Positions 3,753 through 62,856 of a stretch of 64,000 nt of DNA are shown here, one piece after another. The stretch is from the NCBI GenBank assembly GCA_017463225.1, contig JAFTPO010000012.1, forward strand, positions 607 through 64,606, given 5' to 3'. The position numbers were made by a program, and so were the translations under genes. Position 1 is the first letter of the stretch, and each line of letters starts with the position of its first letter. Under the pieces are notes generated by a model. That model saw only the letters and a program-made list of their open reading frames with translations, did not search any database and was not told the DNA's origin. Source of the DNA: Lachnospiraceae bacterium. Lineage in GTDB: Bacteria > Bacillota > Clostridia > Lachnospirales > Lachnospiraceae.

Positions 3753-4592
3753 ATGAGTGAGAATATGCAAGATAAGGTAAATGAAGCAAAAGAGAAGAAG
3801 TTGGCTAAGCGTAAGAAAGAGGATAAGAAGAAGTTGATAATTCTTCTTGTAGTAACAGCTTTATGTTCAGTGTTAGGCTATTTTGCGGGGGCGATAATTG
3901 GTAAGCTTCAAAAGGCGGGTTACGGTTTGCCTGAATTTACGGAAGAAGTTATAGGAAAAATGTCCTTGATTATGCCTGTAGTATTTCTTTTATTAAATGT
4001 TATTCTTGCCATAGTTGGATATGCTTGTATCAGAAAAAGTAAGAAGGAATTTGAGCTTTGGGATGGTGAAGACGAGGATGTAGCAGAGAAGATGGAGAGT
4101 AGAGTTGCTTTCCCACTTTATATGTCCAGCTTGGTATTAATTATTAATATGTTTCTATTTTCCGTATGTGCAAATTTAGATATTAATTCAGAGCTTTCAG
4201 ATAAGTGGGAGGATATATTAGGTATTGTACTCTTCAGCGTTTTCATATTATCCTATGTTGTTGTGGTTGTTGTACAGAAAAAAGCAATTGACTTTACTAA
4301 GGATATGAATCCTGAGAAGGAAGGCAGCATATTCGATGCAAAGTTTGTGAAAAAGTGGGAAAATAGCTGCGATGAGGCTCAGAAGCTACATATATACAAG
4401 GCTGGATATTCTAGCTATAAGGTTACAAGCAATGTTTGTATGATACTTTGGATAGTATGTCTAATAGCAGATTTATTTGGAAATGTGGGATTACTTCCTA
4501 TGACTATGGTGTTTGTAATTTGGTTTGCTTCAACTATTGGGTACATAGTTGGTGGTGTTAAGGCAGAGAAAGAAAAGAATACTATAGAATAA
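3753..4592 (+). CDS. multi-pass membrane protein (DUF3169-like) paired with the XRE regulator
   Basis: 279 aa with about six TM helices, immediately downstream of the small XRE gene. This pairing is common in Firmicutes. Confidence 0.6.
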   Translation: MSENMQDKVNEAKEKKLAKRKKEDKKKLIILLVVTALCSVLGYFAGAIIGKLQKAGYGLPEFTEEVIGKMSLIMPVVFLLLNVILAIVGYACIRKSKKEFELWDGEDEDVAEKMESRVAFPLYMSSLVLIINMFLFSVCANLDINSELSDKWEDILGIVLFSVFILSYVVVVVVQKKAIDFTKDMNPEKEGSIFDAKFVKKWENSCDEAQKLHIYKAGYSSYKVTSNVCMILWIVCLIADLFGNVGLLPMTMVFVIWFASTIGYIVGGVKAEKEKNTIE

Positions 4593-4593
4593 A

Positions 4594-4637
4594 AAAGAAC
4601 AGGAGTCAAAAAGTATATAGGCTCCTGTTCTTTTTTA
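4594..4637. terminator. bidirectional intrinsic terminator
   Basis: AGAACAGGAG 4596-4605 pairs with CTCCTGTTCT 4622-4631. It is flanked by an A-run and a T-run, between convergent genes. Confidence 0.65.
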
Positions 4638-4967
4638 TGACTCACTTAATCCTTTTATATATGCTAGCGCTATCTCCTGCTTATGCTTAGGTAGTGACAT
4701 GTATAATGTCAGAAGCTCCTGCTGCGATGCGGGAGGTGCCTGATCTATATCGAAGAATTGAGAAAGTGTAATATCCATAGTTTCGCAGATTTTCTCCAGA
4801 GTGTATATGCTTGGGGTGGTTCCGCGGTTTAACATATTAGTAAGTGTGGTTTGTGGGATACCACTATCTTTGCTTATTCGATAAAAACTGAGGTCTTTAT
4901 CTTTGCATAATTGTTTTATTCTATTTATTACATCAAACTGTTCATTATACATATGGATGCGCCTCAT
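4635..4967 (-). CDS. XRE-family helix-turn-helix transcriptional regulator
   Basis: 110 aa with an N-terminal HTH (DLSFYRISKDSGIPQTTLTNMLNRGTTPSIYTLEKIC). Divergent from the ABC exporter genes. Confidence 0.8.
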   Translation of the reverse strand: MRRIHMYNEQFDVINRIKQLCKDKDLSFYRISKDSGIPQTTLTNMLNRGTTPSIYTLEKICETMDITLSQFFDIDQAPPASQQELLTLYMSLPKHKQEIALAYIKGLSES

Positions 4968-14311: not shown

Positions 14312-16000
14312 ATGGATTATATGACTATAGACGGAAGATGTGTGCCTATAGAGGGTGAGAAGAATATTCTTGCAGTTATTCGTAAGGCTGGCATCGATTT
14401 ACCAACATTTTGTTACCATTCAGAGCTTTCTGTATATGGCGCATGTCGTATGTGTGTTGTGGAGGATGACAGAGGAAGAATCTTTGCTTCGTGTTCAGAG
14501 CAGCCTAGGGCTGGAATGGTAATTAAGACTAATTCAACTAAGATTAGAAAGTATAGAAAGCTTATTATAGAGCTTCTTCTTGCGTCACATTGTAGAGACT
14601 GTACAGTGTGTACCAGAAATGGAAACTGCGAGCTTCAGAACATTGCATTTAAGGTGGGAATTCATTCAGTTAGATTCCCTAACAACAGAGAGCAGGTACC
14701 GATAGATATCAGTTCTCCATCCATAGTAAGAGATCCTAACAAATGTATTCTCTGCGGTGACTGTGTAAGAACCTGCGATGAGATTCAGGCAGTTGGAGCT
14801 ATAGATTTTGCCCACAGAGGTTCTAAGATGGAGGTTACTCCAGCATTTGGTAAGGAGCTTGCAGAGACAGATTGTGTAGGCTGTGGACAGTGTGTAGTTG
14901 CATGTCCGACAGGTGCAATATCAGTTCGTACAAATGTTACTGATGTATGGCAGGCTATAGAGGATCCTAATATAAGAGTGGTTGCTCAGATAGCACCTGC
15001 AGTTAGACTTGCAGTAGGTGATAAGTTTGGCTTCCCTAAGGGAACAAACACTATGGGTAAGCTTGTTGCAGCTCTTAGAGTTATGGGCTTTGATAAGGTA
15101 TATGATACAAACTTTGCAGCAGACCTTACAGTTGTGGAGGAGTCAAAGGAGTTTGCCAAGAGATTGGAGAAGAACGAGAATCTTCCACTCTTTACTTCCT
15201 GCTGTCCGGGTTGGGTTAAGTTCTGTGAGACTAAGTATCCTGATTTTGCAGGTAATATATCAACATGTCGTTCTCCACAGGGAATGTTCTCAGCGGTGGT
15301 AAAGGAGTACTTTGCTAAGCAGGATGCTGAGGACGGTAAGAAGACATTTGTGGTTTCAATTATGCCTTGTACAGCTAAGAAGGGTGAGATAGAAAGACCT
15401 GACAACTTTACAGATGGCAGACAGGACACTGATAAGGTACTTACTACAGTAGAGATAATCAGAATGATTCGCCAGGCAGGTATTAAGTTTGATGAGATAG
15501 AAAGTGAGGCACCGGATATGCCATTCGGTATAGCTTCAGGTGCAGCCTCAATCTTCGGTGTAACAGGTGGCGTTACTGAGGCAGTGCTTAGACACGTATC
15601 TGCCCAAAAGGGACATCAGGTTATATCACAGCTTAGCTTCTCTGGTGTACGTGGCGATGAGGGAATCAAGGAAACCAGCGTTATGCTTGGAGATAGAGAA
15701 GTAAAGATTGCAGTGGTAAATGGTCTTGGCAACGCCGACAAGCTTCTTAAGGCTATAAAGGCCGGAGAGGCTCACTACGACTTCGTAGAGGTTATGGCTT
15801 GTAGGCGAGGCTGTATAGCTGGTGGTGGTCAGCCACTTCCTATAGGACCAAGAACAAGAGCTTCTCGTGCAGAGGGAATCTATGCGGTGGATAGAGAATC
15901 GTTGATAAGATTTACTGAAGATAATCCACTTCTTAATCAGACCTATCAGGATGTAATAGCTGGTAAGGAGCATAAGCTGCTTCATAGAAGTGGGCATTAA
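14312..16000 (+). CDS. hydA: [FeFe]-hydrogenase catalytic subunit HydA (group A3, bifurcating type)
   Basis: H-cluster motifs FTSCCPGW, MPCTAKKGE and EVMACRRGCIAGGGQP. N-terminal 2Fe-2S and 4Fe-4S ferredoxin domains. Confidence 0.93.
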   Translation: MDYMTIDGRCVPIEGEKNILAVIRKAGIDLPTFCYHSELSVYGACRMCVVEDDRGRIFASCSEQPRAGMVIKTNSTKIRKYRKLIIELLLASHCRDCTVCTRNGNCELQNIAFKVGIHSVRFPNNREQVPIDISSPSIVRDPNKCILCGDCVRTCDEIQAVGAIDFAHRGSKMEVTPAFGKELAETDCVGCGQCVVACPTGAISVRTNVTDVWQAIEDPNIRVVAQIAPAVRLAVGDKFGFPKGTNTMGKLVAALRVMGFDKVYDTNFAADLTVVEESKEFAKRLEKNENLPLFTSCCPGWVKFCETKYPDFAGNISTCRSPQGMFSAVVKEYFAKQDAEDGKKTFVVSIMPCTAKKGEIERPDNFTDGRQDTDKVLTTVEIIRMIRQAGIKFDEIESEAPDMPFGIASGAASIFGVTGGVTEAVLRHVSAQKGHQVISQLSFSGVRGDEGIKETSVMLGDREVKIAVVNGLGNADKLLKAIKAGEAHYDFVEVMACRRGCIAGGGQPLPIGPRTRASRAEGIYAVDRESLIRFTEDNPLLNQTYQDVIAGKEHKLLHRSGH

Positions 16001-16010
16001 AAATATGTAG

Positions 16011-16154
16011 TATACATATAAAGAGGGCGTTGGGATATATTTCAATCCGGCCGCGACAGGGTAATGCGCAGCTGACCGTTTTAGTGTCAGCGAAGCATTA
16101 TCCCTAGGCAGGCCGGCCAAGGAAGTATATCTTTACGCTCTCTACGTATGTATA
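16011..16154 (-). repeat. structured GC-rich core (16046-16122, minus orientation) nested in a long imperfect AT-rich hairpin; copy A
   Basis: The reverse complement of 16046-16122 aligns with the cores at 42151-42224 and 51905-51977 (see findings). Arms 16011-16043 and 16122-16154 are imperfectly complementary. Confidence 0.75.
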
Positions 16155-16157
16155 AAA

Positions 16158-16451
16158 TTATATTAAGTACCACACTATTGAAAGTACTGTGCTTGTAAGT
16201 CCGATTAAAGCCTCGTAAGGTATAAGCTTCATACGGTCGCTTATGCTTATGTCGCAGATTGGATGAAGTGCAAATAGGATACTGCACAGATTACCATAGT
16301 GCTAACTGTTGTCTCAAGGCCGTCGCCACCCATAAGACCATCGATGTGAGCTCCTTAATATTAAGCTATATGCTGGAGAAACCTTTTTGATAATGAGTAC
16401 AATGGCGATTACTAATCCTACGATTGCGCCTAAAGTTGTAAATTCGTACAT
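16158..16451 (-). pseudogene. remnant of a GntP-family (gluconate/glycerate) permease gene: frameshifted and internally deleted
   Basis: ATG 16451, 2 nt after the glxK stop, gives MYEFTTLGAIVGLVIAIVLIIKKVSPAYSLIL. The frame then breaks. A shifted frame reads GAHIDGLMGGDGLETTVSTMV; a last frame ends ..MKLIPYEALIGLTSTVLSIVWYLI*. About 290 nt remain where ~1.3 kb is expected. Confidence 0.5.
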
Positions 16452-16453
16452 AA

Positions 16454-17596
16454 TTAAACTTCTTTCACGTTAATTAATCTAAATACCTGTTCTACAGTTG
16501 TTTCCATATTATCTCTTGCCACAGCAGGAGTCATAGCCTCCTGTAATGTTTGAATTCTTCTAAGTATTGGGAAGAATGCGTCTATACCGTGCTCGTTACA
16601 AGCAGTTGCATCTGGTGTTACTGCACCTGCGAAGGCAAGAACAGTTTTATCATATTTCTTTGCAATATTTGCAACACCGATAGGTGCCTTGCCAAATACT
16701 GTCTGTCCATCTAATCTACCTTCTCCTGTAACTACTATATCAGCATCCTGAACATAGCTTTCCAGCTTTGTTTCTTCTAAGATAATCTTAATTCCTGACT
16801 CTAACACTGCATTTGTGTAGGCTAAGAATGCGAAGCCTAAGCCGCCAGCTGCTCCTGTTCCTGGATGCTTAGCGTTTGCTTTGCTATACTTTTCAGAGGT
16901 AAGCTTAGCATAGTAAGCAAGCCACTTATCCATCTGGATAATCATAGCTCCGTCAGCCCCCTTCTGAGGTCCGAATACCGCGCTACATCCAAGCTCTCCG
17001 CATAAAGGATTTGTTACATCACAAGCTACTCTGAATGAGCACTCCTTAAGCTCTGGGATTACATTATCATCTGTGATTGTCTCAATTTCTTTAAGTCCCT
17101 TTGCGCCAAATGGAACCTGGTTTCCGTCCTTATCCAGCATTCCATAACCAAGTGCCTGAAGCATTCCAATCCCGCCGTCGTTAGTTGCGCTTCCGCCGAT
17201 GCCTACGATAAAGTGACGACAGCCTTTTCTTATGGCGTCTTTGATTACCTCGCCTACGCCATAGGTTGTTGTGTGAAGAGGATTTCTGTCTGCGTCTGGA
17301 ACTAATGTGATTCCTGCAGCACCAGACATCTCCACGATTGCTGTCTTGCTTTCCTCTAAGATTCCGTACACACAGTTAACCTTTTCTCCTAAAGGTCCTG
17401 TAACCTTAACAGTTTCTAACTTTCCACCCATTCCAAGTGCAAGCGCTTCTACAGTGCCTTCTCCACCATCGGCAAGAGGTCTTACGCAAACCTCAGCATC
17501 TGGAATTGCCTTTAATATTCCGTTCTTAATTGCGTCTCCTGCTTCAAGAGAAGACAAGCTTCCCTTTAATGAGTCAATTGCTACTACTACTTTCAT
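16454..17596 (-). CDS. glxK: glycerate kinase
   Basis: MKVVVAIDSLKGSLSS.., PLADGGEGT, GIGGSATNDGG, VTGEGRLDGQT: GlxK/GarK family signatures. Confidence 0.92.
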   Translation of the reverse strand: MKVVVAIDSLKGSLSSLEAGDAIKNGILKAIPDAEVCVRPLADGGEGTVEALALGMGGKLETVKVTGPLGEKVNCVYGILEESKTAIVEMSGAAGITLVPDADRNPLHTTTYGVGEVIKDAIRKGCRHFIVGIGGSATNDGGIGMLQALGYGMLDKDGNQVPFGAKGLKEIETITDDNVIPELKECSFRVACDVTNPLCGELGCSAVFGPQKGADGAMIIQMDKWLAYYAKLTSEKYSKANAKHPGTGAAGGLGFAFLAYTNAVLESGIKIILEETKLESYVQDADIVVTGEGRLDGQTVFGKAPIGVANIAKKYDKTVLAFAGAVTPDATACNEHGIDAFFPILRRIQTLQEAMTPAVARDNMETTVEQVFRLINVKEV

Positions 17597-17736
17597 TAAT
17601 TACTATCTCCTTTTTGTTTGTTGCTCCGTTTTCTTTATGTTGAGATAATGATAACATATAAAAATTATAAATAATATGTTATACAAGACGAAAATAGCTT
17701 GAAAAGTATGTTAAAACATGGTATATATAACATAAA

Positions 17737-18846
17737 GTGGAACAAATGGAGGATTTTATGGCATTTTCTATCAGGCAGAACGTGGCCCAGCAAATAGTTG
17801 AAGCGGTAAAGGATGTTGCGGGACACGATATCAATTTTATAGATGCTAAGGGAATTATATTTGCCAGCACAGATATTAAGAGAATTGGAGACTATCACGA
17901 AATCGGTCACCAGGTAATTAAAAAGGGTGAGACCATAGAGGTTGATAGTAACGAAGGATATTTTGGTACCAAAAAAGGTGTGAATATTCCTTTTATATAT
18001 AAGGGTGATGTCTGTGCAGTTATAGGAATTAGTGGAGAACCTGAGGAGGTAAGGAAATATGTATACCTGGCTCAGAAGATTACCGCTTTAATTCTAAGAG
18101 AGCATGAGCTAGAACGGCAGGAGCACAACCAGAAGACACAGCTGAATCACGTTATTCGTTCCATAATAAACCATGACTACTTAAATATTGATTACCTGAA
18201 GGATTTCCTTAAGGATTACAGGACAACTCTTAATGCTAGCTATCAGACCATACTTATTAAGCTGGATTCAAGATATAATCCATCAAATCTGTCTATGATA
18301 GAAAAGTATATATACCAGGCCTTTGAAAGCACAGGTTCTAAGCTATATACCTTTAACTATGCCAATGAATACATTCTTTTGATGGAAGCAGAGAAGGTAG
18401 AAAAATGCTTATATATATTTGAAGAATTGGGGCAAAAATATTCACCTATAATAAAGATTGGAGTAGGTCGTGTGGCAGAGCTGTCTCATCAGCACAACTC
18501 CTACCAATCAGCTAAGATTGCCATAGAAAGTTTATTCGCAGATGAGTATATTGCGGTATTTGATTCCTTGGATTTAGAAATACTGTTAGGCAATGTGGGT
18601 CAGGAGAACAAACAGCTGTATCTGCAGAAAACCATAGAGAAGATTTCAGAGAAGGATCGAAAAGTACTTAAAACATACTTTTCTCTTAATATGTCCTTAA
18701 AGGATAGCTGTGAACAGCTTTTTTTACATAAGAATACACTTCAGTACAGGTTGGATAAAATTTGGAGAGATACGGGATACAACCCCAGAGAGTTTAAGGA
18801 TGCGGCAGTATTATATGTGGGTCTTAAGATGCTGGGGAATGAATAA
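17737..18846 (+). CDS. CdaR/PucR-family sugar-diacid regulator
   Basis: N-terminal diacid-recognition pattern (AQQIVEAVKDVAGHDINFIDAKGIIFAST..RIGDYHE). C-terminal PucR HTH (LFLHKNTLQYRLDKI). Divergent from glxK. Confidence 0.85.
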   Translation: MEQMEDFMAFSIRQNVAQQIVEAVKDVAGHDINFIDAKGIIFASTDIKRIGDYHEIGHQVIKKGETIEVDSNEGYFGTKKGVNIPFIYKGDVCAVIGISGEPEEVRKYVYLAQKITALILREHELERQEHNQKTQLNHVIRSIINHDYLNIDYLKDFLKDYRTTLNASYQTILIKLDSRYNPSNLSMIEKYIYQAFESTGSKLYTFNYANEYILLMEAEKVEKCLYIFEELGQKYSPIIKIGVGRVAELSHQHNSYQSAKIAIESLFADEYIAVFDSLDLEILLGNVGQENKQLYLQKTIEKISEKDRKVLKTYFSLNMSLKDSCEQLFLHKNTLQYRLDKIWRDTGYNPREFKDAAVLYVGLKMLGNE

Positions 18847-18881
18847 GTGTCAGTGAACTAAGTGATATTACGGGAGGTATA

Positions 18882-20305: not shown

Positions 20306-20326
20306 GGAATTGTGGGGGAGAATAAT

Positions 20327-22051
20327 ATGAGGAGACAATTGTTTGAAAAAGTGAAGTGTTGCGTTGCGGTATTAGCAACGGCAGGGCTGATAATGGGCTC
20401 ATTTGCCGATGGCACAATAAATACATATGCTACAGAATTGGCTACGCCAACAGAGGCAACACCAATTGATGCGACAACTATAGATGAGGCTACAGAGGAA
20501 ATGACGACAGAGAAAGTAATAGAAGGAACTGAGGATGTGGTATCTGAAGAGACAACTCAGGAACTGGTGGATACAGGCTCATTGCTTCGTGATGTAAAGC
20601 CGGGAGAGCCAAGCATTACATATGCAGTACACTGTCAGGATTATGGCTGGATGACCCCGGTTTCTAATGGTGCTATGGCAGGAACCAGTGGACAGGCGAA
20701 GAGGCTAGAGGCAATCAGTATAACATTGAAGACTAATCAGGCAACAAATGATAAAGGAGAACCGTTAACAGGTGGAATAAAATACAGAACCCACGTACAG
20801 TATATCGGTTGGCAGGATTGGGTAAGTGCAGACTTAGATGGACAGGATATCAGCCTTCAAATAGATTCTGGCATTTACGGTGGTACTATGGGTATGTCAA
20901 GACGTTTGGAGGGCATACAGATAGAGCTTTATGGAGAACTGGCACAGTACTATGATGTATTGTATAGAACCCATGTACAGGATTATGGTTGGATGAATTA
21001 TGTGTCCAATGGAAAGCTGTCCGGAACCACAGGTCAGTCAAAGCGTCTTGAAGCTATCGAAATAGCTCTTGTAAAGAAGAACACCCAGGTGTCTGCAAGC
21101 CTTACATATAAGGTGCATGCACAGGATTATGGCTGGATGAGTGAGGTAGCCCCTGCTCTTGGAGAGTATAATAATAATACAGTTGCAGGAACTACCGGTA
21201 AGTCAAAGCGTTTAGAGGCTATAGTGTTAAATCTCGATACAGTAGGAGTCACAGGAGATGTGGAGGTAAGTGCTCACGTGCAGGATATAGGCTGGATGAC
21301 CCCGGTTAGTGGCGGACAGATATCCGGTACAGAGGGACGCTCTAAGAGAATGGAGGCTGTAACAATTAGATTAACAGGCTCTATAGCGGCTTACTATGAC
21401 ATATACTATAGAGTACATATACAGAATTTTGGATGGCTTGATTGGGCGGTTAATGGACAAAAGGCCGGAAGCCAGGGCTTGGGCTATCGAATGGAGGCTC
21501 TTCAGGTTGTGCTGGTTAAAAAGGGTTCGGCTGCTCCTGGAGCTACTACAAGACCATTCTATGACTTTGGAGCAGGAGATTGGACCATATTGCCGGGAGC
21601 TCTTTCTATAGAGGTTAACAAGCAGATGAATTGTATAACTGTATATAAGGGAAGTGTACCGATTAAAGCAATGGTGTGTTCTACAGGTAGCTATACACCT
21701 GTGGGAACCTTTAATCTAAAGTCAAAATGGAGATGGAAGGAACTGATACATGATGTGTATGGTCAGTATTCTTATCATATAACCGGAGATATATTATTCC
21801 ACTCCGTACCATATGATGATCCTAATATCTATAAGCTTTTGACCAGCGAATACAACAAGTTAGGACAGACTGCATCAGCAGGCTGCATCAGACTTACAAC
21901 GGCTGATGCAAAGTGGCTGTATGACAACTGTCCAAAGGGTACAAAAGTAAAAATATACAACAGCACAAATCCGGGACCTTTGGGTAAGCCAACGGCGCAA
22001 AAGATTCCGGCAGGACAGAACTGGGATCCAACAGACCCGGCTATTAAGTAG
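20327..22051 (+). CDS. secreted L,D-transpeptidase (YkuD domain) with six ChW (clostridial hydrophobic-W) repeats
   Basis: Signal peptide. Six repeats of the type Y+xHVQDxGWMxxVSNGxxxGTTGQSKRLEAIxIxL (about nt 20600-21560). C-terminal YkuD motif HSVPY..SAGCIRL. ATG 20327 follows GGGGGAG. Confidence 0.85.
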   Translation: MRRQLFEKVKCCVAVLATAGLIMGSFADGTINTYATELATPTEATPIDATTIDEATEEMTTEKVIEGTEDVVSEETTQELVDTGSLLRDVKPGEPSITYAVHCQDYGWMTPVSNGAMAGTSGQAKRLEAISITLKTNQATNDKGEPLTGGIKYRTHVQYIGWQDWVSADLDGQDISLQIDSGIYGGTMGMSRRLEGIQIELYGELAQYYDVLYRTHVQDYGWMNYVSNGKLSGTTGQSKRLEAIEIALVKKNTQVSASLTYKVHAQDYGWMSEVAPALGEYNNNTVAGTTGKSKRLEAIVLNLDTVGVTGDVEVSAHVQDIGWMTPVSGGQISGTEGRSKRMEAVTIRLTGSIAAYYDIYYRVHIQNFGWLDWAVNGQKAGSQGLGYRMEALQVVLVKKGSAAPGATTRPFYDFGAGDWTILPGALSIEVNKQMNCITVYKGSVPIKAMVCSTGSYTPVGTFNLKSKWRWKELIHDVYGQYSYHITGDILFHSVPYDDPNIYKLLTSEYNKLGQTASAGCIRLTTADAKWLYDNCPKGTKVKIYNSTNPGPLGKPTAQKIPAGQNWDPTDPAIK

Positions 22052-24931: not shown

Positions 24932-25678
24932 ATGAGCGATAAAGTAACAGAGGCAATTAAATTAGAGAATGTGACCATGAGCTTTAATCTACACAAGGAA
25001 AAGCTGGATAGTGTGAAGGAATACGTGCTGGGCTTGGTGAAGGGTAAGACCAAGAAGCAAATGTTTAATGCCTTATCAGATATTAGTTTTTCAGTAAACA
25101 AAGGTGATAGAGTAGGTGTTTTGGGACTGAATGGAGCCGGAAAATCCACACTTATGAAGGTAATCGCCGGTGTGTATGAGCCTACGTCAGGCAATGTTTA
25201 TAAGGAAGGTGTTGTTGCGCCTATGATAGAGCTTGGTGCAGGCTTTGATGTTCAGTATACCGGTGCAGAAAATATATATTTATATGGTTCGGTGCTTGGT
25301 CATTCAAGAAAGGATATGCAGCAGCGTTTTGATGAGATAGTTGAGTTTTCGGAGCTTAAAGAATTTATTGATGTGCCACTAAAGAACTATTCATCAGGTA
25401 TGAGAGCAAGGCTGGGATTTGCTATTGCTACTGTGGTAAAGCCGGATATTTTAATTCTTGATGAGGTGCTTTCTGTTGGCGATGCAAAATTCAAGAAAAA
25501 AAGTGAGGCAAAGCTTATGTCTATGATGGATGAGCAAACTACAGTGATTTTTGTGTCCCATAATCTGGCACAGGTAAGAAGAATATGCAATAAAGCTATG
25601 ATATTGGAAAAGGGTAGATTGATTGCTTATGGGGATATTGATGAGATTGCAACCAGATATGAGGAGATGACTAAGTGA
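24932..25678 (+). CDS. tagH: polymer export ABC ATP-binding protein (TagH/Wzt-like)
   Basis: Walker A GLNGAGKST, signature YSSGMRARL, Walker B ILILDEVLS. Confidence 0.9.
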   Translation: MSDKVTEAIKLENVTMSFNLHKEKLDSVKEYVLGLVKGKTKKQMFNALSDISFSVNKGDRVGVLGLNGAGKSTLMKVIAGVYEPTSGNVYKEGVVAPMIELGAGFDVQYTGAENIYLYGSVLGHSRKDMQQRFDEIVEFSELKEFIDVPLKNYSSGMRARLGFAIATVVKPDILILDEVLSVGDAKFKKKSEAKLMSMMDEQTTVIFVSHNLAQVRRICNKAMILEKGRLIAYGDIDEIATRYEEMTK

Positions 25679-26781
25679 TGAGTAATATAAGAATGGTATT
25701 TAAGATGCTATGCCAGCATATTATTTTCCCTTTTGTATACTTTGTAAATAGATTCAGACCTATAGATAAAAAGCTGGTAATACTGGCTGATGCTCATCAT
25801 GATGGCTGTCCGGAGCATATGAGCTACCTAAGAGCAAAACTGATGGAGACTGACCTTAAGGTAGAGGAATGCTTCTTTAATATTTATACAATAGGCAAGT
25901 GGGAAGCCTTCAAGCAGATGGTTAGCTTTATGGCAAAATACCCAACAGCATCTACAGTCGTGGTATGTGATTATTTTTTGCCGGTGGCATCCTGCAATAA
26001 AAAGAAGAAAACAAAGGTTGTTCAGCTTTGGCATGGATGTGGGGCCTTTAAAAAATTTGGATATAATTCAAAGGAAGATATTCCTGAAGGCTATCACGGT
26101 AATGTTCATAAGAATTATTCTATGGTTACGGTCAGTGGGGAGGCAGCGGTTAAGCCTTTTGAAACTGCCATGATACTTGGAGCTGACAACGTTATAAAGC
26201 CAATGGGTGTAAGTTTTACTGATCGACTTTATGATGAAAACTATATTGGACTTTGCAAGGATAAGTTTCGATTTGAACATCCTGATGCTTCAGGCAAGCA
26301 GGTTATATTGTGGGCGCCGACCTTTAGAGGTAACGCCAAAAAGAAAAAGGATGAGATAAATGTTACACCGGGCGAGGCTTATGTTAATTTATTAGCGCAG
26401 GATGACAGATATTACCTTATAAAAAGCTTACATCCGCACCTGCACAAGCAGGGAACTATGACTACCGGAGAACTGCTTTGCTGTGCTGACTTGCTTATTA
26501 CAGATTATTCATCAGTGTTTTTTGAGTATTTGCTGATGGACAAGCCTATTATATTCTTTGCTCCTGATTATGATGTATATTCTGCGGGCAGAGGCTTTTA
26601 TTTGGATTATAAGACATTGCCGGGAGTGGTTCTTACCTTGGATACTGATTTGAGACCACACGTAGAGGAAGCTTTGGAGAATGATGAGTATTCTGAGACA
26701 AGAGCAGAGTATAGGGATAGGTATATGGCTGCTTGTGATGGCTGCGCAACGAAGAGGATAGTTGATTATATAATTGGATAA
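25675..26781 (+). CDS. CDP-glycerol/polyol-phosphate glycerophosphotransferase family (TagB/TagF/TarL), paralog 1
   Basis: QLWHGCGAFKKFG, WAPTFRG, TDYSSVFFEY, ACDGCATKRIV. Start overlaps the tagH stop. Confidence 0.85.
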   Translation: MMSNIRMVFKMLCQHIIFPFVYFVNRFRPIDKKLVILADAHHDGCPEHMSYLRAKLMETDLKVEECFFNIYTIGKWEAFKQMVSFMAKYPTASTVVVCDYFLPVASCNKKKKTKVVQLWHGCGAFKKFGYNSKEDIPEGYHGNVHKNYSMVTVSGEAAVKPFETAMILGADNVIKPMGVSFTDRLYDENYIGLCKDKFRFEHPDASGKQVILWAPTFRGNAKKKKDEINVTPGEAYVNLLAQDDRYYLIKSLHPHLHKQGTMTTGELLCCADLLITDYSSVFFEYLLMDKPIIFFAPDYDVYSAGRGFYLDYKTLPGVVLTLDTDLRPHVEEALENDEYSETRAEYRDRYMAACDGCATKRIVDYIIG

Positions 26782-26868
26782 GAATTAAGATAATTAAATT
26801 ATTGATATTTGCGGTTGTTTTAGCTATACTTAGTCGGATTGCAAAATATTATACAGAGGTTAAGTATT

Positions 26869-27966
26869 ATGAATAAATTTATAGTGGGTTTTCTTTTGCC
26901 CCTTTGGTACAGACTTTGTTGTTTCTGTAGAGTAAAAAATAATATTCTTTTTATTGTAATCAAAGGAGATAAGCTCCCATCTGATTTCAATGTAATTAAA
27001 AAACGTATAAAGAAGGATGATGAGTTAAAATCATATAAGAGAATATATCACTACTTTACATTAGGTCGAGGTACAAAGCTTAAATATGGAAGTAGATGTT
27101 TTTCTTTGATGCCGAAGCTTGCAAGGGCAAAGTATGTTTTTGTGAGTGATGGAAGTAATGTGATATCCTCTTTGAGGCTTAGAAAGGGTACAAAGCTGAT
27201 TCAAACCTGGCATGGCTGTGGAGCTTTGAAGAAGTTTGGTAAGGACGTTGATTGTGATAAACAGTATTTTAAAAATGAGGATGTAGTAACCTTAAGTAGT
27301 GAAAATGTTGTGCCTGCTGTAAGACAAGCTATGGTGCTTGATGAGAGTGTGATGTTTTCCATCGGTGTTCCTCATACAGATATTTTTTATAGTAAGACTT
27401 TTGAGAAGCATTGTCAGCAGCTGAAAGATGAACTTTTAGCAGGCAGAAATAAGAAGATTGTGTTATATGCTCCAACCTTTAGAGGAGATGTGAATGCTCC
27501 GAAGGATGCAAGTGGTCTCAATCTTGATATAATGTATAAGCATTTGAATCAGGAATATATTGTAATTAGTAAACTGCATCCATTGCTTAGACCAGTGAAG
27601 AAGAGTTATAGACATAGAGATTTCTACTATGATGTGGGAAGTGTATGGTCTATCGAGGAGGCATTAATGGTATGCGATATACTTGTGACAGACTACTCTT
27701 CCATAATTTTTGATTATTCATTGCTTAATAAACCGGCTATTTTTTACGCATATGATTTGGCAGAATACAAGGAACAGGTGGGCTTTTATTTGGATTATGA
27801 GAGTGAGATGCCTGGTGCCATTTGCAACAGTACAATGGAAGTTATTAAGGAGATTAAAAATGGTTCATTTGATGTAGGAAAGATGAAGTCGTTTAGGGAA
27901 AAGTATATGGATGCCTGTGATGGTCATTCCACAGAAAGATTGGTGGAGATTATGAAAAACTCTTAA
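26869..27966 (+). CDS. CDP-glycerol glycerophosphotransferase family, paralog 2
   Basis: QTWHGCGALKKFG, YAPTFRG, TDYSSIIFDY, ACDGHSTERLV. ATG 26869; the ORF track starts at 26839. Confidence 0.85.
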   Translation: MNKFIVGFLLPLWYRLCCFCRVKNNILFIVIKGDKLPSDFNVIKKRIKKDDELKSYKRIYHYFTLGRGTKLKYGSRCFSLMPKLARAKYVFVSDGSNVISSLRLRKGTKLIQTWHGCGALKKFGKDVDCDKQYFKNEDVVTLSSENVVPAVRQAMVLDESVMFSIGVPHTDIFYSKTFEKHCQQLKDELLAGRNKKIVLYAPTFRGDVNAPKDASGLNLDIMYKHLNQEYIVISKLHPLLRPVKKSYRHRDFYYDVGSVWSIEEALMVCDILVTDYSSIIFDYSLLNKPAIFYAYDLAEYKEQVGFYLDYESEMPGAICNSTMEVIKEIKNGSFDVGKMKSFREKYMDACDGHSTERLVEIMKNS

Positions 27967-27988
27967 ACCTGTAATTGGAGATGATAAA

Positions 27989-29245
27989 ATGCGTAGTATT
28001 AAGGAGAATCCAATATATGTATTCGTGAGAAAACGACATTGGAAGATAAGCAAAATGCTTAGAAATCCGTTAATTCAGATATATAGATTTTGTATCTTAA
28101 AAATTCTTTATCCAACTGTGTATAAGATAAATGCAAAAAAGCCTCTCAAGGAAGATAAAGTTGTTTTTGTTGAAATAAGAATATCAGAGCTTAGCAATAG
28201 CTTCTCTTTGATACATAAGGAATTGACAGAAGGCTACAAATACGATATACACTTGCATTTTTTACGTGTTGGGTTTGTATCGCGTAGGGAACAAATTAAG
28301 CTGGCCACAAAAATGGTTAGTGACATAAGTGATGCAAAGTATGTAATTTTAAATGAAGGTTCAGGTGTTATTGGAAGTCTTCCGATTCGACAGGATACAA
28401 TAGTTCTCCAAACGTGGCACGGATGTGGAGCATTTAAAAAGTTTGGTATGAGCACAGCAGATTTGATTTTTGGAGATGATCGAAAAAACCAAGAGAAATA
28501 TCCGGTTCACAAGAACTATACATATGTTACTGTAAGCTCTCCTGAGGTAGTATGGGCGTATGAGGATGCTATGCCCAGCATAAAAGGTAAATCTATAGTA
28601 AAACCTGTAGGTGTTTCAAGAACAGATATTTTCTATGATGAGGAAGCAAAAACTAAGGCTTATAATAGAATATATGAATTGGTGCCGGAGGCAAAGGGAA
28701 AGAAGATTATAATGTATGCACCAACCTTTAGAGGAAGGGTGGTTAATGCCAAGACATCACATGAATTAGATGTTGCATATATGCACAAATATTTAAAGGA
28801 TGATTATGTTGTAATTTATAAACATCATCCGGTGGTAAAAAAGAGACCGGAAATACCAGAAAATCTGGAACACTTCGCATACGACTTAACAGATGATATT
28901 AGTATTGAGGATCTAATTATGGTAAGTGATATATGTATATCGGATTATTCGTCTTTGGTTTTTGAATATTCGCTATTTGAAAGACCTATGATATTCTTTG
29001 CTTATGATTTGGATGATTATTACGATTGGAGAGGCTTTTATTACGATTATTATGAATTTGCTCCGGGACCTATATTTTCAAATACTAATGATATAGTAAA
29101 ATATATAAATGGTATATCGAAGAATTTTGATAAGCAAAAGGTTATAGATTTTAAAAATAAGTTCATGAGTGCCTGTGATGGTCATGCCACAGAGCGAATT
29201 ATGAAAATGACATTTAAAGAAGATTTGGATAGGTATAGAAGGTAG
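27989..29245 (+). CDS. CDP-glycerol glycerophosphotransferase family, paralog 3
   Basis: QTWHGCGAFKKFG, YAPTFRG, SDYSSLVFEY, ACDGHATERIM. Confidence 0.85.
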   Translation: MRSIKENPIYVFVRKRHWKISKMLRNPLIQIYRFCILKILYPTVYKINAKKPLKEDKVVFVEIRISELSNSFSLIHKELTEGYKYDIHLHFLRVGFVSRREQIKLATKMVSDISDAKYVILNEGSGVIGSLPIRQDTIVLQTWHGCGAFKKFGMSTADLIFGDDRKNQEKYPVHKNYTYVTVSSPEVVWAYEDAMPSIKGKSIVKPVGVSRTDIFYDEEAKTKAYNRIYELVPEAKGKKIIMYAPTFRGRVVNAKTSHELDVAYMHKYLKDDYVVIYKHHPVVKKRPEIPENLEHFAYDLTDDISIEDLIMVSDICISDYSSLVFEYSLFERPMIFFAYDLDDYYDWRGFYYDYYEFAPGPIFSNTNDIVKYINGISKNFDKQKVIDFKNKFMSACDGHATERIMKMTFKEDLDRYRR

Positions 29246-37844: not shown

Positions 37845-38047
37845 CTTAATTAAGTACCTACATATATCTGGGATGAGCGATATGACTTGGCCACATGATC
37901 CTACAGGACTTAATAGGGAATCCTATATTTGTAAGCAGATGTCAGGCCTCCTTTGTCAGTGGAAGGCAGAAACTTACGTGCGGACACCCACCTAGCATAA
38001 GCTAGGAGTCATACGCCAAGAGACGCCATTCTGGATATATATTTTTT
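37845..38047 (+). ncRNA. candidate 6S-like regulatory RNA (long rod, large central bubble, apical hairpin)
   Basis: 37862-37903 pairs with 38003-38040, about 32 bp including three G.U pairs that exist only on the + strand. Two unpaired strands of 27 and 25 nt flank an apical hairpin at 37931-37977. The 3' arm runs into ATTTTTTG. The glyA promoter lies downstream of it. Confidence 0.4.
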
Positions 38048-41526: not shown

Positions 41527-42114
41527 ATGGAATACAATTTTTTTGCAACTATTTCCAGAATGAAGTATATAGAGAGATGGGCGCTTATGCGCAACACAAG
41601 ACCTGAGAACCTGTCTGAACACAGTATGGATGTCAGTATGATAGCACATGCTCTGTGTGTGATAGGTAATGTTAGATATGGTAAGAGTCTCAATGAGGAA
41701 AAGGCGGCTCTTATGGGTCTGTATCATGATGCCACTGAGATTATAACCGGAGATATGCCAACTCCGATTAAGTACTATAACAGTAGTATAAAGGAGAGCT
41801 TCAAGGCTATAGAGGAGGATGCCAAGCATTCTCTCTTAAAGCAGCTTCCTGAGGATATGAAGGGTTACTATGAGAAGCTTTTCTTTAAATCACCTGAGCT
41901 TAGCTATGAGTGGAAGCTGGTAAAGGCAGCAGATAAGCTGTCAGCTCTCATAAAATGTATGGAAGAGGAGAAAACCGGCAATAAGGAGTTTGTAAAGGCT
42001 AAGGAAGCAACTGCCGAAAAGGTAGACAAGCTAAGCGAGGAATACCCTGAGGTGAAGGATTTTGTGAAGGAGTTCCTGGGAGCTTACAGCAAGACATTAG
42101 ATGAACTAAATTAA
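41527..42114 (+). CDS. HD-domain 5'-deoxynucleotidase (YfbR-like)
   Basis: RWALMRNTRPENLSEHS.., LYHDATEIITGDMPTP: YfbR-type HD motifs. Confidence 0.8.
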   Translation: MEYNFFATISRMKYIERWALMRNTRPENLSEHSMDVSMIAHALCVIGNVRYGKSLNEEKAALMGLYHDATEIITGDMPTPIKYYNSSIKESFKAIEEDAKHSLLKQLPEDMKGYYEKLFFKSPELSYEWKLVKAADKLSALIKCMEEEKTGNKEFVKAKEATAEKVDKLSEEYPEVKDFVKEFLGAYSKTLDELN

Positions 42115-42123
42115 ATGAAATAT

Positions 42124-42251
42124 AAAACAGGGCTGTGGGACGAAACATATCGGCCGACCTGCCTAGGGATAAAGCTCCGCTGACACTAACACGGTCAGCT
42201 TCGCTTCACCCTGGCGCGGTCGGGATGTAAATAACCTCACAGCCCTGTTTT
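42124..42251 (+). repeat. structured GC-rich core (42151-42224) nested in a terminator hairpin; copy B
   Basis: Outer stem AAAACAGGGCTGTGGG pairs with CCTCACAGCCCTGTTTT. The core aligns with copies A and C. Lies between convergent genes. Confidence 0.8.
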
Positions 42252-42264
42252 ATATTTCGTTTAA

Positions 42265-42990
42265 TTATATCCAGCCTCCGTCAAATTTGATAACTTCTCC
42301 AGTAAGGTATTCAGGCATATTTAGAATGCCTTTGATGCATTTAGCAGCCTCTATAGGCGTGCACATTCTTCCATATGGGATTTCTTCCTCGAGCTGGGCT
42401 ATCTCATCATCAGAAAGATGTCCGTTCATTGTGGTGTTCACGGCACCGAAGGCAATGGCATTAACGGATATATTGCTAGGAGCAAGCTCCTTTGCTAAAG
42501 CTTTGGTAAAGGCGTTAATTGCGCCCTTTGTAGTTGAATAGGCAACCTCGCAGGATGCTCCAACCAATCCCCATACAGAGGAGATATTGATTACCTGTCC
42601 GGACTTCTTGTTTATCATGTGTGGGAGCGCTGCGTGGCAAAAATTATAAACTGAATTAATATTAACATTCATAATTTGCTGCCAGGAATCAGGAGTGGTA
42701 TCCGTAAATAGACCAACCTGAGAGATGGCGGCATTATTTATCAGAGTAGTAACCTCCCTGGCATCACTGATGACTTTATCTACCATTTCCTTAGCAAAGT
42801 TATAATCTGACACATCGCCAACCATAGCAAGACATTGCTTTCCCATAGCTTTGATTTTATCCATTAGCTCACCCAGCTTTTTCGTATCCTTGCTGCAGCA
42901 TATTGCAATATAATCGTAATCCTTGGCTAGTAAATATGCGGTCTCATAGCCTATACCTCTGGAGGCTCCTGTAATAATTATTGATTTCAT
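42265..42990 (-). CDS. short-chain dehydrogenase/reductase (FabG-like)
   Basis: ITGASRGIG, NNAA, SxxxxxxxxxxxxYxxxK (YSTTKGA). ATG 42990; the ORF-track start at 43080 lacks support. Confidence 0.88.
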   Translation of the reverse strand: MKSIIITGASRGIGYETAYLLAKDYDYIAICCSKDTKKLGELMDKIKAMGKQCLAMVGDVSDYNFAKEMVDKVISDAREVTTLINNAAISQVGLFTDTTPDSWQQIMNVNINSVYNFCHAALPHMINKKSGQVINISSVWGLVGASCEVAYSTTKGAINAFTKALAKELAPSNISVNAIAFGAVNTTMNGHLSDDEIAQLEEEIPYGRMCTPIEAAKCIKGILNMPEYLTGEVIKFDGGWI

Positions 42991-51328: not shown

Positions 51329-51868
51329 ATGTATGAGAATATTTTGGGGAGACCCATACCTGTTGTAAATGAGAAGACGGTGCGAGGGAATTACAAAAAG
51401 CTTACTAATCTTCTGATTGATAATAAACTTAGTATCACAACTATGGAGAGTGCAACCTCGGGACAGATAGCTTCATTGATAACTGATACAGAAGGGGCTT
51501 CAGCTATATTTAAGGGGGCATATGTGACTTATTCCAATGAGATGAAGATAAAGTGTGGTGTTCCTGCTGAGACCATAGAGAGATATTCGGTGTACTCAAA
51601 GGAAACTGCAGAGGCTATGGCTGTTGCATGTAAGGAGGCATTTGGGGCAGATATAGGGATAGGTGTAACAGGCACTATGGGAAATGTAGACCCGGCCAAT
51701 CTGAAAACTTCTCAGCCTGGAATGATATATTATGCCATAAGTATAGGGGATAAGATAGCAAGCTATGAGAGAAAGCTTTTTCCACAGCCAAGTCGCTATA
51801 TGTATAAGCTGGCTGTAGCAGATATGATATGTGCATCCATTATGGAGTTAATTGAAGAAGTTAAATAG
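51329..51868 (+). CDS. CinA C-terminal-domain protein (nicotinamide-nucleotide amidohydrolase PncC-like)
   Basis: ITTMESATSGQIAS.., YSNEMK.., GVTGTMG: CinA_C pattern. Confidence 0.82.
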   Translation: MYENILGRPIPVVNEKTVRGNYKKLTNLLIDNKLSITTMESATSGQIASLITDTEGASAIFKGAYVTYSNEMKIKCGVPAETIERYSVYSKETAEAMAVACKEAFGADIGIGVTGTMGNVDPANLKTSQPGMIYYAISIGDKIASYERKLFPQPSRYMYKLAVADMICASIMELIEEVK

Positions 51869-51876
51869 ATTGATGA

Positions 51877-52003
51877 AATAAAAAAGAAAAAACCAGGAGA
51901 CAATATACTTTCTTGGCCGGCCTGCCTAGGATCGGTCCACGCTGACACTAACACGGTCAGCTTAGTCCCGACCACTGTCGCGGCTGGATTATAAGTATAT
52001 ATC
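51877..52003 (+). repeat. structured GC-rich core (51905-51977) nested in a terminator hairpin; copy C
   Basis: Outer stem AAAAAACCAGGA..ATATACTT pairs with AAGTATAT..TCCTGGTTTTTT. The core aligns with copies A and B. Confidence 0.8.
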
Positions 52004-52119
52004 CTGGTTTTTTCTTTTTAAACCACAAGTTAAAGGAATTTAAATCCGTTTCCTGCTATCATTATATTAGAAGAAAGTGGTGAATATGACTGCTTATAGA
52101 GTGATTGTGATAGGGAGGA

Positions 52120-62735: not shown

Positions 62736-62763
62736 TTTGATTTGGAACAGTAATATAAAATAG

Positions 62764-62837
62764 AAAAAACCAGGAGACCATATACTTTCTTGCCGACTAC
62801 TGAGTGGCCGGATTATAGGTATGTCCCCTGGTTTTTT
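62764..62837 (+). repeat. core-less relative of copy C: same outer arms, 20-nt apex (62792-62811); copy D
   Basis: Left arm AAAAAACCAGGAGACCATATACTTTCTT is 27/28 identical to copy C. Right arm is ATTATAGGTATGTCCCCTGGTTTTTT. The apex GCCGACTACTGAGTGGCCGG replaces the 73-nt core. Confidence 0.65.
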
Positions 62838-62856
62838 CTTTGGTTTATCTAAAAGC

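Follow-up and report, generated by a model that had tools for sequence, protein, structure and literature searches.

Small palindromic repeats have been much studied in proteobacteria and pneumococci and hardly in the uncultured Clostridia dominant in animal guts. The REP/REPIN elements are extragenic palindromes that follow genes and form imperfect hairpins with conserved mismatches, able to serve as 3' stabilisers or terminators. Of the ERIC and Correia elements, shorter, internally deleted forms are known. Both ERIC and Correia (nemis) elements are imperfect palindromes, ~100-200 bp long, within intergenic DNA that is transcribed, and they are conserved between species at differing locations; Correia hairpins in mRNA are cut by RNase III, and ERIC hairpins affect mRNA decay (PMC10969869, PMC3049150). 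SPRITE is a small interspersed repeat of pneumococcus, a Firmicute, in which a long stem is followed by a U-rich tract and whose ends are hardly more than AAAA/TTTT; its 30 copies lie near gene 3' ends, with strong enrichment between convergent genes, and neither a target duplication nor a transposase is known for it (PMC3049150). In the BOX elements of pneumococcus (boxA-boxB-boxC) the outer modules are paired to one another, and the fold is undisturbed whether the middle module is there or not (PMC3049150).

The repeat family described here was found in a 64,000-nt stretch of a Lachnospiraceae contig (JAFTPO010000012.1; hereafter the window), and it resembles each of these systems in part. 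With SPRITE it shares a terminator-like fold, A/T ends, a position between convergent genes and a low copy number, whereas SPRITE is AT-rich, has an 18-bp duplex and carries no GC-rich conserved apical module; for SPRITE no filled and empty pairs are available, against two orthologous pairs here. BOX, modular and with an optional middle, is the nearest analogue of the relation between copy C and copies D and E set out below, but its boxB varies in copy number and is not its most conserved part, while the tip is the most conserved part of the present family; BOX has also been reported with terminal inverted repeats and target duplications, and as a rule forms no terminators. ERIC and Correia belong to Gram-negative bacteria of another phylum and have no sequence relation to the family; their terminal repeats are conserved and target duplications have been described, in contrast to ends that are the least conserved part here and to the absence of any clean duplication. 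REPINs conserve their arms and vary at the tip, the opposite of the present arrangement, and neither a GTAG-type head nor a RAYT or Y1 HUH transposase gene occurs in the window or the fetched flanks. Going by published descriptions, the likeness to SPRITE, BOX and RUP lies in organisation alone (PMC3049150), and membership is implausible given the taxon and the GC-rich core. In organisation the family is closest to SPRITE, BOX and ERIC/Correia (PMC3049150; PMC10969869), and by this comparison it would belong to no named family.

The window holds three full copies and two degenerate ones, lettered A to E, and at least eight more occur in four other species; the units are 100-158 nt long and non-coding. 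Copy C had been placed at 51877-52003. A hairpin does lie there, but position 52003 cuts its right arm, and the true extent is that of the first line below.

51878-52019, + strand: copy C hairpin, whole (sequence reading and repeat search)
51878-51901, + strand: copy C left outer arm, A-tract and stem (ATAAAAAAGAAAAAACCAGGAGAC), pairing with 52002-52019 (RNA fold)
51902-51914, + strand: copy C inner left arm (AATATACTTTCTT), pairing with the inner right arm (RNA fold)
51915-51987, + strand: copy C core, 73 nt, type I, fold z-score -7.0, with helices P1 CCGGCC/GGCTGG, an internal loop, P2 GGATCGG/CCGACC and P3 GCTGAC-ACTAACACG-GTCAGC
51988-52001, + strand: copy C inner right arm (ATTATAAGTATATA), complementary to 51902-51914
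52002-52019, + strand: copy C right outer arm and T-tract (TCCTGGTTTTTTCTTTTT), pairing with 51878-51901
62755-62841, + strand: copy D, with C-type outer arms, both inner arms and a core remnant
62779-62792 and 62812-62823: copy D inner arms
62793-62811: copy D core remnant, 19 nt from the 3' end of the core (CCGACTACTGAGTGGCCGG)

The central claim of the original prediction, that C and D are a filled and a core-less version of one hairpin, is real. The left arms are near-identical (27/28; AAAAAACCAGGAGACAATATACTTTCTT at 51887-51914 of C, AAAAAACCAGGAGACCATATACTTTCTT at 62764-62791 of D), the right arms are related (22/26; ATTATAAGTATATATCCTGGTTTTTT and ATTATAGGTATGTCCCCTGGTTTTTT), and the 73-nt core stands in C only, with 20 nt between the arms of D. 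As had also been stated, the two loci lie ~11 kb apart (10,877 nt by measurement) and follow unrelated genes, a CinA-family gene before C and a FecR-domain gene before D. A repeat search within the window aligns 51878-51915 with 62755-62792 (95% over 38 nt) and 51982-52017 with 62806-62841 (86% over 36 nt), and a 15-mer at the base of the arm, AAAAAACCAGGAGAC, has five matches against 0.09 expected.

These identities, set beside an expectation of 0.09 matches, speak against chance resemblance. Metagenome assemblies do mis-join at the repeat, as in contig L022, but each of the two loci is found in several independent assemblies (L003-L010, L020), D in the same form in six of them save for one compensating change in L005. 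Similarity between the two loci starts at ATAAAA and stops at TTTTTTCTTT, the base of the palindrome; the flanks outside it are unrelated, which excludes the larger segmental duplication that had been named as a possible cause of the arm similarity. Chance, assembly artefact and segmental duplication together have a practically negligible probability of explaining the shared arms.

Copy D had been described as P1-like ends around a short loop, and it is more than that: the best alignment of its 20-nt interior is with the final 20 nt of the core (CCGACCACTGTCGCGGCTGG, core positions 54-73), a score equalled in 143/5000 shuffles. The proposal that D is an internal-deletion derivative gains from this, as D retains the two inner arms together with 19-20 nt from the 3' terminus of the core. 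D is thus the descendant of a copy that was filled, at least in part, and is no virgin site.

Three further copies lie elsewhere in the window.

4589-4638, unstranded: copy E, a core-less hairpin of the C/D arm family
16012-16153, - strand: copy A, full element, with a type II core at 16047-16118
42109-42266, + strand: copy B, full element, with a type II core at 42152-42223

The scaffold of E reads ATAAAAAAGAA-CAGGAG...CTCCTG-TTCTTTTTTAT, and a single inner arm (AAAAAGTATATA; reverse complement TATATACTTTTT) makes up its 12-nt loop. The hairpin sits between a DUF3169 gene (3753-4592, +) and a convergent HTH gene (4635-4967, -). A single 64-kb window shows the scaffold empty in E, half-filled in D and filled in C. 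E and C also differ by a symmetric 5-nt indel, AAAAC being absent from the left arm of E and GTTTT from the right, which suggests that one arm was copied from the other at the DNA level.

Copies A and B had been credited with unrelated outer arms. This holds for the outermost stems only (GAGAGCGT/ACGCCCTC in A, GGGCTGTG/CACAGCCC in B), since the inner 12-13 nt on each side of A (ATATACTTCCTT / ATTGAAATATAT) are common to C and D; more generally, the inner left arm of C is semi-conserved and recurs in A, D, L013, L025 and others. Copy B is a 158-nt palindrome that occupies the entire gap between a YfbR-like HD gene (+) and a convergent SDR gene (-), overlapping both stop codons, and its outermost 29-nt arms are 97% complementary. 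Copy A lies between an [FeFe] hydrogenase gene (+, ending at 16000) and leftover ORFs beside a glycerate kinase gene (-). Its orthologous locus in L033-L035 was tried as a comparison and set aside as uninformative: the neighbours differ and the terminators are unrelated. In those three, the hydrogenase gene is followed ~50-150 nt on by a small gene (127-139 aa) and further downstream by a DAP epimerase gene. In the window ~2.9 kb separates those genes (16000-18880), including the glycerate kinase gene (-) and a CdaR/PucR-type regulator gene (+), and the left boundary of this additional segment is exactly where copy A stands. Two short hydrophobic ORFs within the segment (16314-16451 and 16158-16232, -) look like the leftover ends of a transporter gene and have no Pfam match.

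Each of the three cores in the window (A on the minus strand, B and C) forms the apex of a long hairpin whose fold z-score lies between -6.9 and -10.5. Read inwards, the layers are A-tract, outer stem, inner arm, P1, internal loop, P2, small internal loop and P3. The inner-arm consensus ATATACTTTCTT pairs with AATGAAGTATAT, and within it the apical module forms a P1-P2-P3 rod of 72-74 nt with a 9-10-nt loop. The core consensus has CCGGCC/GGCCGG as P1 and GCTGAC/GTCAGC, closed by ACTAAMACG, as P3, and the internal loop between P1 and P2 is asymmetric and conserved. P2 comes in three very different versions, all of them paired and each conserved across species: type I (GGGTCGG/CCGACC), type II (GGGATAATGC/GCATTACCC) and type III, which occurs in L025 together with a compensatory change in P3 (GTTGAC/GTCAAC). 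Over 11 distinct copies, 98.9% of pairing cells hold standard pairs, against 17-46% with the partners slid; compensatory double changes occur in three pairs, the covariation score is reached by 0/500 shuffles, and one U.G pair is invariant.

Similarity between copies peaks at the apex and falls outwards, ending at varying points (a TA, GGAATC or the hairpin base); the inner arms are complementary but only ~70% conserved. Non-orthologous copies from five species are 96-100% identical at the apex, while the CinA and FecR orthologues of these species share 59-82% identity. Between the orthologous hairpins in L012 and L018 there is no substitution in ~135 nt and one single-base indel in the T-run, in surroundings where coding DNA is ~93% and the adjacent intergenic stretch ~55-60% identical. 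Taken together, the identity of these two hairpins and that of the apex across species show that the apex is under constraint, as is the entire hairpin at some loci. Between L011 and L015 the outer stem is altered on both sides in compensating fashion and the basal internal loop has several changes; the base of the element evolves faster than coding DNA.

Could the core be a new functional structured RNA, as a 3'-UTR or processed small RNA or as a protein-binding hairpin, with the copies as paralogous genes and the arms as their usual 3' end? Such an RNA would account for the near-identical apex at non-orthologous loci, the three discrete P2 variants, the conservation of bulges, internal loops and apical loop, the invariant U.G pair and the L012/L018 hairpins that stayed identical between diverged flanks. 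At both independent loci where the neighbouring genes are in tandem (C; L012/L018), the core is in sense orientation. The strand evidence is nevertheless mixed: the core-sense strand has the invariant U.G and three sporadic wobbles, but also two A.C mismatches, and for copy A the other strand gives the better fold (-76.6 against -60.8 kcal/mol). Convergent loci give no orientation signal, no consistent promoter lies ahead of the copies, and the genes beside them show no common function. The rod is simple and has no tertiary features, and the core is dispensable at the orthologous sites in L024 and L027 and decayed in D. The compensatory changes and the symmetric E/C indel could, moreover, reflect DNA-level template switching in a quasi-palindrome and not selection on RNA. 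No Rfam family matches the core either: over the whole window at the gathering threshold, Rfam 15 returns 6S RNA alone, the stretch 51800-52100 at E<=10 gives two noise matches only (11 and 8 bits), and a tRNA/tmRNA scan has no match. A structured RNA of this kind is thus a possibility on the unlikely side. The 6S match is itself a full-length SsrS gene:

37862-38041, + strand: 6S (SsrS) RNA gene, Rfam RF00013, 63 bits against a gathering threshold of 46.4

Orthologous loci in other genomes show how the layers come apart. At the CinA locus the element is filled in the window and in a strain with a 97% identical CinA, whereas L024 (CinA 75% identical) has only GGGAGAC-AGAGTAT-GTCTCCC plus T6, with no core. 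The downstream flank there is the same as at C (AAAC(C/T)ACAAGTTAAAGGAATTTAA), and GGAGAC of the C left outer arm is present as well. Since GTATGTCTCC of L024 is identical to the right arm of D in strain L005, this arm set is native to the C locus and D resembles a copy of the C hairpin. The FecR locus of the Wujia genome L025 carries a full reversed element inside the arms AAGGGCGCGGGA/TCCCGCGCCCTT; L027, whose FecR shares 81% identity with the L025 protein, is core-less there, with precisely these arms around TTTATACTTTAT, and two other relatives have unrelated simple terminators. Unrelated terminators are likewise found in the more distant outgroups L026, L028, L029 and L033-L035.

Both the paralogues E/D/C and these orthologous loci show the apical module and an inner arm as one block, either there or missing, between outer arms that are kept. 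The suggestion that the core can be separated from a repeated terminator is strengthened accordingly: E is core-less, L024 and L027 (against the filled L025) keep their outer arms, and the core occurs with several other arm sets. What falls is the idea of the 73-nt core alone as the mobile module, as the semi-conserved inner arms travel along with it and outer arms recur among non-orthologous copies. One set of outer arms is common to C, D and E; GGGCTGTG/CACAGCCC is found in B, L013 and L016 and also as the foreign right arm of L022; the related CCTGTGCG is found in L011/L015, and GGAATC/GATTCC in L012/L018 and L014. The presence/absence polymorphism that the original prediction proposed to look for exists between species, at the CinA and FecR loci, and not among close strains, where ~10 independent contigs show no filled/empty difference at C or D.

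All three fully core-less hairpins (E, L024 and L027) keep A[A/G]AGTAT beside the right outer arm, and AAGTAT is part of the inner right arm of C. The motif may be the remnant of an inner arm, the core having been lost, or just as well a loop motif beside which the core inserts, the core having been gained. The 73-nt apex might be a new self-contained module of structured RNA or single-stranded DNA that actively colonises terminator loops by polar, pairing-guided copying, with its AAGTAT end pairing to ATACTTT, so that E would be empty, D 5'-truncated and C full. We regard this as unlikely. The same three states would arise if a single-stranded DNA hairpin were moved by a HUH-type enzyme (an IS200/IS605 derivative or a REP/RAYT-like system) or by other polar copying, the AAGTAT end base-pairing with the loop motif ATACTTT of an empty target (E) to give a full insertion (C) or a 5'-truncated one (D). 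E, read as its reverse complement, and D break at one point, ...CTTT(C)TTG|, which is exactly the start of the core, and D retains only the 3' end of the core and the inner right arm; the core-less E and L027 have ATACTTT in the loop on different stems. Conserved asymmetric bulges, typical of hairpins that are read single-stranded, count in the same direction. However, no HUH, RAYT or TnpA gene occurs within the window or the flanks examined, and the copies have no orientation bias (A on the minus strand, B and C on the plus strand). The unit is palindromic, so the data fit loss of the core and one inner arm equally well, and the core-less cases number three or four. Movement by such an enzyme is accordingly very improbable.

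A more conventional mover would be a classical cut-and-paste MITE. Here a TAC...GTA unit of ~100 nt, comprising inner arms and core, would be a non-autonomous element that inserts at and duplicates TA in AT-rich terminator loops, moved by an IS630/Tc1-type transposase encoded elsewhere whose IS would be expected to have terminal repeats matching TACTTTCTTGGCCGG. Correia, ERIC and RUP are palindromic MITEs, and TA is their target. TA flanks the unit on both sides in 7-8/11 copies (A, C, D, L011, L013, L015 and L025; in L016 a clear TA stands on the right only), although TA is frequent in AT-rich loops. D and the core-less L024 have the same right flank after the TA (TA-TGTC[C/T]CC), and GGGAA-TA-AAGTA-TA-AATCCC in L027 resembles an excision footprint between two TAs. 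Yet a bare TA is found at none of the core-less sites: E, L024 and L027 retain 7-12 nt of inner arm, and the target-site duplication that the original prediction proposed to look for, with a clean empty site, is accordingly not seen. The ends of the unit are its least conserved part and the centre its most conserved, the opposite of transposase-bound terminal repeats, and the outer arms beyond the TA are common to non-orthologous copies (C/D/E; B/L013/L016; L012/L014). There is no transposase among the ~50 larger ORFs of the window surveyed with Pfam and no match in plasmid, phage or viral collections. With inner arm staying behind at core-less sites and outer arms recurring between loci, the TA-duplicating model was set aside, and we rate it as quite unlikely.

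Pfam searches of ~50 of the larger ORFs of the window returned housekeeping-type families only, and none was a transposase, recombinase or reverse transcriptase; for CinA, the hydrogenase, FecR and three more ORFs, annotation came from precomputed domains or was absent. Neither this survey nor the viral, plasmid and phage collections gave a related autonomous IS with the same ends. Several other repeats in the window lie in coding sequence. Three tandem ORFs of similar size (368, 375 and 418 aa) at 25675-29245 give DNA repeats at ~1.2-kb spacing (direct-repeat families D1-D3 and D6); the first, the only one of the three scanned with Pfam, is a CDP-glycerol glycerophosphotransferase, and all three lie inside a cell-envelope polysaccharide/teichoic-acid gene cluster at ~22-35.5 kb. 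An ORF region at 20312-22051 encodes five ChW repeats and a YkuD L,D-transpeptidase domain, and these repeats account for families D5, D7 and D14.

Beyond the window, at least seven true copies were found in four Lachnospiraceae GTDB species (ruminant-gut MAGs, including a Wujia species) by a scan for exact matches to the 18-mer of P3 in one genome per species, a procedure that misses variants such as the type III copy of L025. That reversed type III copy, in the same Wujia MAG, came from the orthologue look-up, and another copy next to an AsnC/Lrp-like gene is implied by the chimeric contig L022. The core is present in at least five Lachnospiraceae species, and the family is wider than the exact 18-mer scan shows. 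Exact matches number one to three per representative genome, and draft MAGs probably undercount repeats. A profile built from 11 copies (nhmmer) found no additional copies in the 215 kb examined, and D and E escape it. Viral contigs searched with three patterns gave chance matches only (L001, L030, L031, L032), a scan of JGI metagenomes with the P3 18-mer gave one (L019), and BLAST of plasmids and phages gave no match. A hit in a Roseivirga MAG of the Bacteroidota (L017, 824-842) was rejected: the 18-mer there is an ordinary terminator stem-loop by chance, and the rest of the element is missing. No description of this repeat element was found in the literature, and the family is previously undescribed and restricted to a group of ruminant-gut Lachnospiraceae.

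Assemblies can fail at the repeat. The Logan contigs L003 and L004 end inside the core, and in the ENA contig L022 (1378-1520) the left arm and core of C are fused to a foreign right arm (GGCACAGCC), followed by the AsnC/Lrp-like gene. Either the repeat breaks and mis-joins short-read assemblies, or its copies recombine.

All copies lie 0-30 nt past the end of a gene, most of them between convergent genes, and every one is enclosed by complementary arms with A- and T-tracts. In C, CCAGGA/TCCTGG followed by TTTTTTCTTTTT, beginning 10 nt past the CinA stop codon, has the layout of an intrinsic (Rho-independent) terminator and is predicted to be one, and D and E, built in the same way with an A-tract on the other side, are predicted bidirectional terminators. 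The terminator scan allows loops of 3-8 nt only and is blind to these longer-loop hairpins; the terminator and RNA roles proposed here are predictions from sequence.

The reading that we favour, with moderate confidence, is that the family is a modular, terminator-resident interspersed palindromic repeat, in which outer arms forming a bidirectional terminator would carry an apical module that comes and goes block-wise, with a recognition hairpin at its apex. C, D and E would then be three paralogous copies of one bidirectional intrinsic-terminator hairpin, made of an A-tract, a CAGGAG-type stem and a T-tract. The full unit would have three layers, namely locus- or sublineage-specific outer arms that serve as the terminator stem, semi-conserved inner arms and the 72-74-nt apical module. 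C would be full-length, D decayed through loss of the first ~53 nt of the core, and E core-less with one inner arm as its loop. Transcription of either flanking gene would produce a long interrupted hairpin and a U-tract, which may act as a terminator for both directions and close off the 3' end of the mRNA. Changes of state may come about by recombination or gene conversion between arm-sharing hairpins, and also by microhomology or palindrome-driven deletion. The least certain step concerns the near-invariant apex, which selection may hold as a hairpin recognised by sequence and shape, either by an RNA-binding protein or by a moving enzyme. A plain terminator requires no sequence-conserved apex, and this counts against the terminator-resident reading, as do the mixed strand evidence, the low copy numbers, the fast-changing base of the element in L011/L015 and the chance that template switching produced the compensatory changes and the E/C indel.

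For those who work with these genomes, the repeat is a source of broken and mis-joined metagenome assemblies (L003, L004, L022), and its near-identical apex across species is a ready marker for the Lachnospiraceae group that carries it. If the apex were after all a coloniser of terminator loops, it would represent a hitherto undescribed kind of mobile element that targets terminators. With this family one can test directly whether repeats of this sort parasitise terminators, serve as parts from which terminators are built, or carry a functional RNA hairpin.
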